From a virus (taxonomy: Duplodnaviria > Heunggongvirae > Uroviricota > Caudoviricetes), in IMG/VR virus record IMGVR_UViG_2617270962_000012, positions 1-41,053 of that record: a stretch of 41,053 nt of DNA. One strand, given 5' to 3'. Positions 36,095-38,142 of the stretch are shown piece after piece. The position numbers and the translations under genes are program-made. The number at the start of each line of letters is the position of its first letter. Within the stretch, counting starts at the first letter, position 1. The notes under the pieces were generated by a model, which saw only the letters and a program-made list of their open reading frames with translations, ran no database searches and had not been told where the DNA came from.

Positions 36095-36597
36095 AACGAA
36101 CCTCTTTTAATAAAGTCAAGTGATAATGAAAGATAAATATTGTAAACGAAAAAGCACTGGACTGGAACATATATCTCTGCCTATAATTTAACTAGGATAA
36201 TTTTACTAACGCAGTCATAATTCGTTCATGTATACCAGATGAAAGTACATGTTCTATGAAATAGGGTTTTGCCTGGAGTTTGAAGGTTTTTAACGATTAT
36301 ACCTGTTTAATCGACTCCCCATGTTTTTTGACATTATCCACCGCACACGATACTGGATGCCAGGCAAACTGATTTGCTGGCATAAAGTCACTGAGAATTT
36401 TTTACCAACAATATCTTGCCACATCTTTTCCCGCACAGTTTCGGCAATAGAATCAGCGGGCAGCGGTCATCAATATTCACCAGACATTGATCTGCCGCAC
36501 TATCTGACCGGTGTCCTGCTGAGAATACTAATTTCTTTTTTTGCAAGTGCTGTCCAATCATGATTGGGGGGGTGCCCCTATTAAGTTGTCAAGCATG

Positions 36598-37794
36598 TTA
36601 TGACGCCTGCGGGGTATAAAAAGTCCCGTCGCGCATCATGGCGAACAGAACGTCGCAGCGTCGTCTCGCCAGGGCGATAAGCGCCTGATTGTGTCGTTTT
36701 CCCTGACTCATTTTGCGGGTGTAGTAAGCCCTGGAGAGCGGATCCCTGAGCGCGGCGAAGGCCGACAGGAACAACGCCCGTTTGAGAGCTTTATTACCCC
36801 GTCGCGAGGGATGCTCACCGCGTATTGACGAGCCGGATCGCCGAGTTACCGGCGCAAGGCCAGCATAAGCAGCGAGATGTGCGGCAGAGGCGAAGGCGCG
36901 GCAGGCGACCTCGGTGAGAAGTCTGGCTGCGGTCCTGACACCGACTCCGGGCATACTGGTCAGGACCGGGTAAAGAGGGTGAGCAAGAACTCGTTGTTCT
37001 ACCGCAAGCGCCACCTCGTCTCTTTGCTTACGCAGCGTGATGAGCTGGAGTGCCAGACGTGGCAGTACTACGGCAGCGGCATTCGTGCCGGGAACGACGA
37101 CGGTTTGTTCGGCCAGTGCCTGAGCTATGTCTGCTGCAAGGCGTTTACCCAGACGAGGCGCAAGTTTGCAGAGCTGGGCTGCCAGCTTCTTCTCACCCAG
37201 CGAAGCGAGTTTTTCTGGTGAGGGATATCGCTGGAGAAGATCGAGTACCGCCGGGTGATCAAGTCTCGGACCGAGAACGCGCTCCAGTGCCGGATGTATC
37301 TGGGTCAGAAGGCCGCGGATACGGTTGCTGGCCTGCGTTGTCTGTGCGGCAAGATCATCATCGAAGCCGCAGAGCATGGAGAGTTCGGCGATTTGCTCGT
37401 CAGCCAGTTTCAGCGTGCGTAGCGCGTGAGGCAGGGTACGGGCAGCTTCGGCAATGATGGCAGCGTCACGAGCATCAGTTTTAGCTTCACCGGCGTGTAA
37501 GTCGGCTATGCGGCGCATGGCCAGTCCAGGGAGGTATCCGACAAGGACTCCTTCTGAGCGGGCAACGGCGACAGGTAACGCACCGATGGTAGCTGGCTGA
37601 TCAACAACCAGCAGTATCTGACCATGTTGTTTCAGGTCAGATATTAGCGACCTGAGTTTGTTTTCGTCGTTGGGTAATGCTTTATCGAACAGGCGTTTAC
37701 CTGAACGATTAATGGCTACAGCGTGATGCGTATCTTTATCGACATCAACGCCGATAAAGACCTGGACGGATTCGTAATCGCTGGATTCGGTCAT
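36598..37794 (-). CDS. IS110-family transposase/recombinase
   Basis: N-terminal 'VFIGVDVDKDTHHAVAI' catalytic motif, C-terminal 'SMPGVGVRTAARLLTEV...YAGLAPVTRRSGSS' domain. Confidence 0.85.
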   Translation of the reverse strand: MTESSDYESVQVFIGVDVDKDTHHAVAINRSGKRLFDKALPNDENKLRSLISDLKQHGQILLVVDQPATIGALPVAVARSEGVLVGYLPGLAMRRIADLHAGEAKTDARDAAIIAEAARTLPHALRTLKLADEQIAELSMLCGFDDDLAAQTTQASNRIRGLLTQIHPALERVLGPRLDHPAVLDLLQRYPSPEKLASLGEKKLAAQLCKLAPRLGKRLAADIAQALAEQTVVVPGTNAAAVVLPRLALQLITLRKQRDEVALAVEQRVLAHPLYPVLTSMPGVGVRTAARLLTEVACRAFASAAHLAAYAGLAPVTRRSGSSIRGEHPSRRGNKALKRALFLSAFAALRDPLSRAYYTRKMSQGKRHNQALIALARRRCDVLFAMMRDGTFYTPQAS

Positions 37795-38100
37795 TCTGTC
37801 TCCCTTGTATATGGGTTAACCAGATAACCACGGGGAGCAGGTACCGGCATCCACGTTACAGACGGTCCCGGCAAAAGTGCCTGACCTGACCCCTATTAGC
37901 GGTTACCAGCGCCCCACCAGACCCGGTGACATCACCCCCCGGATCATGGACGACTGGGGGCAGTAATCATGCCGGGTCTGGCTGGCTAACACCCCATTAT
38001 AAGGGGTACGAATAAAGTAACGGGGCCGGCGGAGTTGAAACCGCAGGCACGTCGTATGCAAGAACGTGCTGCGGTTGGCTGGTGAACTTCCGATATTGCG
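37795..38100 (-). ncRNA. candidate bridge-RNA-type ncRNA in the IS110 5' leader
   Basis: ~300 bp ORF-free GC-rich leader with stem-loops such as 'ccgcaggcacg...cgtgctgcgg' and 'cccc atta taa gggg'. Confidence 0.3.
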
Positions 38101-38142
38101 AGTATTGAATGATTTCCAGCCGTTACTGATTTTACGTGCTAA

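Follow-up and report, generated by a model that had tools for sequence, protein, structure and literature searches.

The question raised by this locus is whether an insertion sequence lodged in a Caudoviricetes genome encodes, in one of its non-coding ends, the RNA that would choose its insertion sites. The window, i.e. the whole stretch of 41,053 nucleotides analysed here (IMG/VR virus record IMGVR_UViG_2617270962_000012), had previously been read from its letters and open reading frames (ORFs). This sequence-only reading placed an IS110-family element between a DinI-like and an acyltransferase gene, and proposed that a structured leader upstream of the recombinase contains a guide RNA ("bridge RNA"). 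Our analysis points to the same type of RNA in a shorter leader: the left end of the element, which is ISEc20, very probably encodes a bridge RNA made up of a 5' stem-loop and two hairpins, the first target-binding and the second donor-binding, within a copy that looks intact. Element and RNA type are real but already known, and for the annotation of the window the result is routine; the modest gains are corrected ends, an explicit guide map for ISEc20 and a predicted target.

The window element is an ordinary copy of ISEc20, a catalogued IS110-family element of Escherichia coli. By megablast against complete E. coli genomes, the whole query (36400-38300) matched strain PD7 at 100%, while the central 1.46 kb matched many genome copies at 99.5-99.8% DNA identity. 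All of these are annotated by RefSeq as "IS110-like element ISEc20 family transposase", a label found in hundreds of E. coli genomes. Strain O145:H28 RM12581 is rich in ISEc20, with 12 places matching the query, although this number takes in the dinI-like flank contained in the query. The family assignment made from the letters alone is confirmed by the 398-aa ORF (37794-36598), which matches the Pfam domains DEDD_Tnp_IS110 (PF01548, E = 1.2e-47, full length, 1-155/155) and Transposase_20 (PF02371, E = 7.4e-22).

To map the ends of the element, we aligned first 9 copies located at different sites and subsequently a larger set of 28 distinct ISEc20 sites, taken from genomes and from IMG/VR prophages. 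The similarity shared among copies begins with GTTACTTTATT after a C run (usually G-CCCC) and stops with AATAGGGGCA, followed by 5-9 C. In the window, the left end is therefore at about 38022 (CGTTAC..., with GTTAC from 38021) and the right end at 36573 (...ATAGGGGCA), i.e. about 1450 bp in the crossover register favoured below. The placement is uncertain only for a few C residues per side, as C runs of ambiguous origin lie beyond both ends (38025-38022 on the left, 36572-36566 on the right). The two ends are not inverted repeats, and the non-coding parts are very unequal, about 228 nt on the left and 23-25 nt on the right; with its structured RNA on the left side and a right end of 23 nt, the element belongs to the IS110 group.

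The interval first given for the element, 36565-38140 (1576 bp), is replaced by 36573-38022 in the 28-copy alignment, its left end having overshot by about 115 bp. The leader is indeed poor in ORFs and structured, but its length inside the element is 227-231 nt rather than about 300 nt, about 75 nt of the longer version being flanking DNA. The hairpin that had been quoted in favour of a guide RNA (ccgcagcacg...cgtgcctgcgg, 38074-38041) lies at least 16 nt outside the element. Moreover, the search for empty-site alleles yielded a single unoccupied homologue of the window site, in E. coli IAI1 (...GCGGTTTCAACTCCGCCGG-CCCCCC-AATCATG..., 92% identical, with 6 C in the tract), where a close variant of this hairpin is present. 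It is therefore not part of an RNA encoded by the element. A guide RNA made of a leader of about 300 nt reaching 38100 and including this hairpin has in its favour the presence of the hairpin and nothing further; it is refuted by the ends common to all copies, and we give it almost no credence.

Inside the corrected ends, the stretch of 227 nt that precedes the start codon shows no difference from the consensus of 25 ISEc20 copies. The segment 38030-37795 (236 nt) folds as a single sequence at -105.6 kcal/mol (z = -2.9). A protein search returned thousands of relatives of the recombinase, some of them already named "IS110 family RNA-guided transposase" by NCBI, and a scan restricted to one genome per species gave 80 loci with 73-82% protein identity, in Burkholderiales, Duganella, Ralstonia, Pandoraea and, unexpectedly, Microbacteriaceae. 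We aligned the left ends of 54 relatives (Proteobacteria and Actinobacteria) over about 200 nt. The RNAalifold consensus of these 54 sequences presents two long hairpins. Pairs were then counted explicitly in five helices: the 5' stem-loop (helix 1), the basal stem of hairpin 1 (helix 2), and the basal stem and two apical segments of hairpin 2 (helices 3-5). For the 37 pairs in the 54 relatives, 95.0% of the cells are paired, and both sides have changed in 22 pairs. None of 500 shuffles did as well, and sliding the partners by 1-3 columns left 29-48% of the cells paired. Helix 2 is the strongest (15 pairs, 98.9% paired, 7 of them changed on both sides), followed by helices 3, 4 and 5 (97%, 96% and 90% paired), which together contribute another 12 pairs with changes on both sides. 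Helix 1 is the weakest (79% paired), alignment gaps being part of the cause. The pairs of the apical stem of the first hairpin are invariant and hence without covariation support.

These counts also bear on the nature of the folded molecule. The left end could act as DNA, with subterminal repeats or hairpins bound by the recombinase, since its left donor guide (see below) repeats a right-end sequence in direct orientation, as protein-binding subterminal repeats do. However, the helix cells contain 235 G-U against 20 A-C combinations, and pairing on the opposite strand would drop from 95% to 84%. This asymmetry indicates that the structure belongs to the transcript in the sense of the recombinase, and not to DNA or to the opposite strand. 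Furthermore, the stems covary while the loop sequences stay fixed. A purely DNA-level role is thus very improbable.

What the RNA would read can be followed in its loops. The unpaired parts of both hairpins are the most conserved stretches of the 54-relative alignment, and each of them matches a DNA partner. In the second hairpin, the left donor guide UAAUAGGGG (37898-37890) has the sequence of the subterminal right end; across the 41-kb window, the 9-mer TAATAGGGG occurs only in this hairpin and in the right end, and none of 100 shuffles gave two occurrences. One position of the guide is G or A depending on the relative, and the right end follows it: 62 cases are G/G, 10 are A/A and 3 are discordant. 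The A/A state (guide AUAGGGA, right end ATAGGGA) is found in Duganella (Betaproteobacteria) and in several Actinobacteria. Such covariation of a loop with the far end of the element, over a distance exceeding 1.3 kb, is what marks a donor-binding loop. On the other side of the same hairpin, the right donor guide GUAACGUG, invariant in the 54 relatives, is complementary to the predicted junction of the joined ends, and GTAACGTG is the reverse complement of CACGTTAC.

The first hairpin carries the guides that would read the target. Its left target guide CUGCCCCC and the run GGGGGG of its right target guide match sites made of a G followed by a C-tract, a tract that is identical throughout the clade. 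The segment holding the right guide, GGGGGGUG, is nearly invariant (four variants in 54 relatives), and GGGGGGTG is the reverse complement of the right junction. The left flanks of ISEc20 end with G and 3-6 C at most sites, and the right flanks show 5-9 C and then unrelated DNA. The left flanks that best match CUGCCCCC are those in rtcB (GACTGCCCC directly before the element) and pga (ATCTGCCCC in the same position). The base preceding the tract is G in 52 of the 82 clade junctions. Among the 28 sites aligned, all ordinary (non-deletion) ISEc20 insertions are in such G/C-tracts, where the core cannot be read unambiguously inside the homopolymer. The predicted target, CTG followed by about 8-10 C, explains the recurrence of ISEc20 in rtcB, pga, terminase genes and intergenic regions of prophages. 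The bridge RNA first proposed from the letters therefore stands for its two-loop architecture and for loops matching ends and target, and falls for its ends and for the hairpin cited.

One other segment near the right target guide deserves mention. The conserved CAUGAUCC, 5' of the G-run, was tried as a guide for the right flank, since the window flank AATCATG is complementary to it, and rejected, other sites having no matching flank; we treat it as structural. In the window, the right flank just past the C-tract, AATCATG (36559-36565), is complementary to a conserved CAUGAU (37942-37948) located two bases 5' of the G-run of hairpin 1. Two other ISEc20 sites have only partial matches, and this complementarity may be due to chance.

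We then considered where the strands would cross over. The register that we favour, with some preference over its alternative, places the core dinucleotide as CA in the donor (ATAGGGG-CA-CGTTAC) and as CC in the targets (CTGC-CC-C(5-7)). In this register, the left donor guide abuts the core as in IS621, and the base that follows it (C or U) could pair with position one of the core. The right donor guide is then complementary without mismatch over 8 nt, and so is GGGGGG-UG to the recombinant right junction. The left junctions of some relatives also argue for it, as they read CA-CGTTAC (loci L035, L037 and L087) or CT-CGTTAC (L029, L045, L057 and L077). The same is true for the spacing between the TTGACR of the right end and the TACNWT of the left end, which is 17-18 bp only with this junction. 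In addition, the lengths of empty sites fit for pga (8 C), for rtcB (10 nt) and for an intact terminase gene (9 nt, the replacement of GGT by GGG being synonymous there).

The last argument for the CA register comes from four independent ISEc20 right junctions that read GGGG-CA-CGTTA(C/T) before continuing into unrelated DNA. Judging from their sequences, these junctions stem from deletions next to the element, in which DNA similar to its left end became fused to the right end, precisely behind CA. One of them, found in Shigella flexneri SFBU1023 and E. coli ECMA0423, lies between ibsA and mdtA. Intact genomes have about 1 kb between its two flanks, so that about 600 bp were lost. On the left, the partner sequence is GGTTT-CCCCC-T-CCCCC-TGG near ibsA, and on the right it is AGTTC-CG-CGTTACCTC inside mdtA, so that the deletion ends at a genomic CG-CGTTACC site mimicking the left end of the element. 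This deletion looks like half-site recombination directed by the donor loop.

The alternative register puts a CC core directly 5' of GTTAC and implies that five C are present where the circle closes. It had rested on the 6-C site of IAI1 and on apparent 2-nt repeats (TC/TC, AC/AC) at L029, L045 and L087. It was set aside as less likely than the CA register: the left donor guide would lie 4-5 nt from the core, the right donor guide would carry two mismatches, the promoter spacer would extend to 21-22 bp, and the GGGG-CA-CGTTAY deletion junctions could not be produced.

With the CA register, a complete cycle can be proposed, largely by analogy with IS621, for which the bridge RNA mechanism was described by Durrant et al. 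2024 (PMC11208160) and Hiraizumi et al. 2024 (PMC11208158). We infer that ISEc20 transcribes its RNA and is active through a circle. The element would excise with its ends joined as ...TTGACA-N14-CA-CGTTACTTT..., the junction reading ...AATAGGGG-CA-CGTTACTTT... and the donor sequence ...ATAGGGGCACGTTAC.... Joining the ends would create a sigma-70 promoter (TTGACA, 17 bp, TACTTT) driving both the RNA and the recombinase, as suggested by this geometry and by IS621. Consistent with such a promoter, the TTGACR hexamer is conserved in 53 relatives, and its distance to TACNWT across a GGGG-CA-CGTTAC junction is conserved in ISEc20 and in all 53. The TATAAT within the 5' stem-loop, in its loop, was also considered as a promoter element and rejected: it lacks a -35 partner, and relatives do not conserve it. 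When the element is integrated, transcription of the dinI-like gene may read through into it, given the identical orientation and the prediction of no strong terminator.

Once made, the RNA would hold the junction of the joined ends in its donor loop. Its target loop would hold a site of CTG and about 8-10 C, with CUGCCCCC paired to the bottom strand and GGGGGG(UG) to the top strand. Strands would then be exchanged by the DEDD/Ser recombinase at the dinucleotide core, CA in the donor and CC in most targets, giving target-CC-CGTTAC...ATAGGGG-CA-C-tract. The arrangement found in the window is the product predicted by such a CA/CC exchange.

Several observations weigh against this reading. When the variable positions of the left target guide, upstream of the G, are compared with the flanks of the same copies, the matches (1.77 of 5, vs. 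1.64 after shuffling) are not significant, 340 of 5000 shuffles being as high. Targeting that is programmable beyond the G and the C-tract is thus weakly supported, the G and C-tract being what the target is demonstrably made of; covariation of the target loop is not visible because the whole clade shares the same C-tract target. The C-run of the left target guide is also complementary to the G-run of the right one, and the match of these guides could be partly intramolecular. In the suggested comparison with covariance models, an Rfam 15 search of 36000-38600 (E <= 1) matched no family to the left end and no bridge RNA family; besides the flanking hairpin (see below), the interval gave a match to a snoRNA that is due to chance. 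A promoter scan of the integrated left end detected no sigma-70-type promoter, and neither the circle or tandem junction pattern CTTAATAGGGGCA-N0-12-GTTACTTTATTCG nor the corresponding Burkholderia-type pattern was found in viral or metagenome contigs. The empty IAI1 allele has 6 C where the favoured register predicts 10, so that either this allele is not ancestral or the register is wrong; other "empty" alleles vary (7, 9, 4 and 63 C) and are annotated as frameshifted. Finally, the searchable literature contains no paper analysing the RNA of ISEc20 itself and no data on its expression, binding or recombination, ISEc20, ISSfl4 and ISBma3 appearing only in inventories and in the supplementary tables of Durrant et al.

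Part of these observations would suit a leader that is a mere 5' untranslated region, whose hairpins control the translation or the stability of the recombinase, or carry a promoter, without any choice of DNA site. The leader does end in a ribosome-binding site and a start codon, structured leaders of transposases are common, and the variable guide positions do not significantly track the flanks. Against this, four loop segments match both of the element's ends as well as the target tract, one of them covaries with the distant right end, and the architecture equals that of the recombination-guiding RNA of IS621 (PMC11208160). We regard the untranslated-region explanation as improbable, and the bridge RNA remains by far the better account of the left end.

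The activity of the window copy is a separate matter. Its recombinase carries D17, D65, D107, D110 and the RSGSS motif, all invariant across the aligned relatives, the second acidic residue being Asp in ISEc20 and Glu in IS621. It differs from the consensus of 25 ISEc20 copies by four substitutions (G19D, E179D, E264A and G397A). At codon 19 (37738-37740), the Gly of the 25 copies is replaced by Asp, changing GVDVGKD to GVDVDKD two residues past the catalytic Asp17. As this Gly is at least 90% conserved among relatives, the window copy may be impaired, which also counts against an active system at this locus. The anatomy of a bridge RNA could then be present in a dead copy, disabled by G19D or by the three other substitutions and persisting only as a prophage passenger. 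PD7 was the sole one of 5,426 complete E. coli genomes found with the same insertion, and its copy, identical to that of the window, also has G19D. On the other hand, the ORF has its full length, no difference from the consensus is seen in the left end, the residue of IS621 equivalent to G19 is Ala, so that Gly is not essential in the whole family, and other copies could complement an inactive recombinase in trans. We consider a dead copy possible but rather unlikely. As a side observation, one 530-aa database protein combines the IS110 domains with PF05930 (Phage_AlpA), probably through read-through or a gene-calling fusion elsewhere.

How does this system compare with those already described? 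The window copy is the same element as the annotated ISEc20/ISSfl4 of the IS110 group, from which it differs by its four recombinase substitutions including G19D, and it shares its insertion site, between the DinI-like and acyltransferase genes, only with the copy of PD7. Durrant et al. 2024 already list "ISSfl4 | LE | IS110 | ISEc20;ISSfl4" in Supplementary Table 5, i.e. a left-end bridge RNA, and group ISEc20 with IS110, ISBma3 and ISSfl4 in Supplementary Table 1 (PMC11208160). With IS621, ISEc20 has in common the recombinase domains, a long left and a short right end, and an RNA (predicted in ISEc20) in which a 5' stem-loop, a first (target-binding) hairpin and a second (donor-binding) hairpin precede the ribosome-binding site, in the order known for the IS621 bridge RNA (PMC11208160). 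In both, left guides read as the top strand and right guides as its complement, the left donor guide matches 7 nt and the first core base, and a right-end -35 hexamer and a left-end -10 hexamer, both candidates in ISEc20, are 17 bp apart across the junction, which is a predicted one in ISEc20. However, the two proteins are only distantly related, and no sequence similarity is detectable between the RNAs. For ISEc20 we propose a core that is CA in the donor and CC in the targets, while that of IS621 is CT, and the target is a G with a homopolymeric C-tract instead of a REP-type sequence. The two target guides of ISEc20 are mutually complementary over 5-6 nt (2 nt in IS621), which makes the pairing register ambiguous, and the apical part of its target loop has only about 13 nt with no well-supported stem.

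Close systems also include ISBma3 and unnamed relatives of Burkholderiales, Duganella, Ralstonia and Microbacteriaceae. At 73-82% protein identity and with alignable left ends, they share with ISEc20 the guide sequences, the C-tract junctions and the geometry of the candidate junction promoter. They differ from it by a stop codon overlapping the TTGAC hexamer, by a left-donor sequence and guide that are ATAGGGA in some lineages and ATAGGGG in others and, in the actinobacterial relatives, by a longer 5' stem-loop. Guides are nearly identical and left ends alignable across Enterobacteriaceae, Burkholderiales and other Betaproteobacteria, and Microbacteriaceae; on sequence grounds, near-identical guides across phyla would imply a recent cross-phylum transfer of one element lineage. 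With the IS1111 group and its seekRNA, ISEc20 shares the recombinase family and the principle of an RNA-guided choice of sites, whereas in that group the RNA is in the right end and the subterminal inverted repeats are long.

For this C-tract clade (ISEc20, ISSfl4, ISBma3 and the actinobacterial relatives), we tentatively put forward three consequences of its guides, which taken together we hold for possible rather than likely. As both target guides would read one homopolymeric C-tract, a slipping register would change the length of the tract. The donor loop alone would capture genomic CGTTAY pseudo-sites and generate adjacent deletions. Lastly, the U of GGGGGGUG, which mismatches the CC core of most targets, would pair with the CA of the donor after exchange, a "handshake" favouring the forward reaction. 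Slippage, pseudo-site deletion and handshake all appear to be undescribed for this clade. The guide map, the C-tract target, the variation of tract length at hotspots and the deletions ending in CGTTAY are small additions; if true, register slippage and pseudo-site deletions would provide a natural example, small but useful, of behaviour off target and at half-sites, which bears on the specificity of bridge recombinases in genome editing.

Unoccupied alleles of the recurrent insertion site in rtcB also differ between strains, among them E. coli Z1323PEC0008: GACTG-CCCCACCCCC-GCG, GACTG-C9-GCG and a run of 63 C, all annotated as frameshifted. This variation could be an assembly artefact, homopolymer instability, or the trace of repeated insertion and excision in shifted registers.

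Table 1. Features of ISEc20 and of its immediate flanks, in positions of the window
Feature	Position	Strand	Remarks
ISEc20 element, favoured register	36573..38022	-	from CGTTAC (38022) to ATAGGGG (36575), followed by core copy CA (36574-36573)
Left non-coding end (LE), 228 nt	37795..38022	-	predicted bridge RNA, then ribosome-binding site AAGGGAGA at ~37806-37799
Candidate -10 hexamer TACTTT	38014..38019	-	17 bp from right-end TTGACA only if ends are joined as ...GGGGCA-CGTTAC...
5' stem-loop UACCCC-UUAUAAU-GGGGUG	37990..38008	-	fold -9.3 kcal/mol, z = -2.4; compensatory changes in helix 1
First hairpin, target-binding loop (TBL)	37913..37985	-	folds at -42 kcal/mol (z = -3.1); helix 2 forms its basal stem
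Left target guide CUGCCCCC	37956..37963	-	TBL 5' side; equals top strand of left target flank and start of C-tract
Right target guide and core complement GGGGGGUG	37933..37940	-	TBL 3' side; reverse complement of right junction CACCCCCC
Second hairpin, donor-binding loop (DBL)	37837..37912	-	basal stem, internal loop, apical stem-loop; centroid fold
Left donor guide UAAUAGGGG(UC)	37888..37898	-	DBL 5' side; equals right-end subterminal TAATAGGGG at 36583-36575
Right donor guide GUAACGUG	37852..37859	-	DBL 3' side; reverse complement of CA+CGTTAC, the predicted circle junction
IS110-family recombinase gene, 398 aa	36598..37794	-	DEDD/RuvC-like N-terminal domain and C-terminal Tnp domain with RSGSS
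Right non-coding end (RE), 23 nt	36575..36597	-	contains TTGACA (36592-36587) and left-donor sequence TAATAGGGG (36583-36575)
Proposed core dinucleotide CA, right copy	36573..36574	-	predicted from guide complementarity, deletion junctions and C(A/T)-CGTTAC left junctions in relatives; left copy CC at 38024-38023
C7 tract	36566..36572	-	right target half in favoured register; alternatively partly element DNA
Flanking hairpin quoted in the sequence-only reading	38041..38074	-	outside the element; close variant at the unoccupied IAI1 site

The genomic setting agrees with the placement given from the letters, the ORF map and Pfam locating ISEc20 between a DinI-like gene (38391-38143), preceded by a tyrosine integrase gene, and an Acyl_transf_3 gene (36094-35027). 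The statement that the insertion sits in the promoter region of the latter is looser, as the right end is about 470 bp upstream of the acyltransferase start codon; the DinI-like stop is followed, after about 120 bp, by the left end. Left of the element, the tail genes are about 98% identical to those of the Shigella serotype-converting phages SfI and SfIV, and ISEc20 is located in the lysogenic-conversion region of an SfI/SfIV-like prophage adjoining dusA. In this prophage (30000-36100 and 38453-40677), which has baseplate and tail genes of SfI/SfIV type, Acyl_transf_3 occupies the place of the gtr O-antigen modification genes of those phages. The prophage integrase adjoins dusA, which is annotated as frameshifted in PD7. 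In addition, PD7 carries an IS1B between ISEc20 and the acyltransferase gene (5208-5905 of the PD7 locus), absent from the window. The hairpin flanking the left end resembles the 3' terminal hairpin of the Rfam family CssrB (RF02799), a Shigella small RNA family, but weakly, its 25.8 bits (E = 0.015) falling short of the gathering score, which is 76; this hairpin may terminate the dinI-like gene or form the end of a CssrB-related small RNA.

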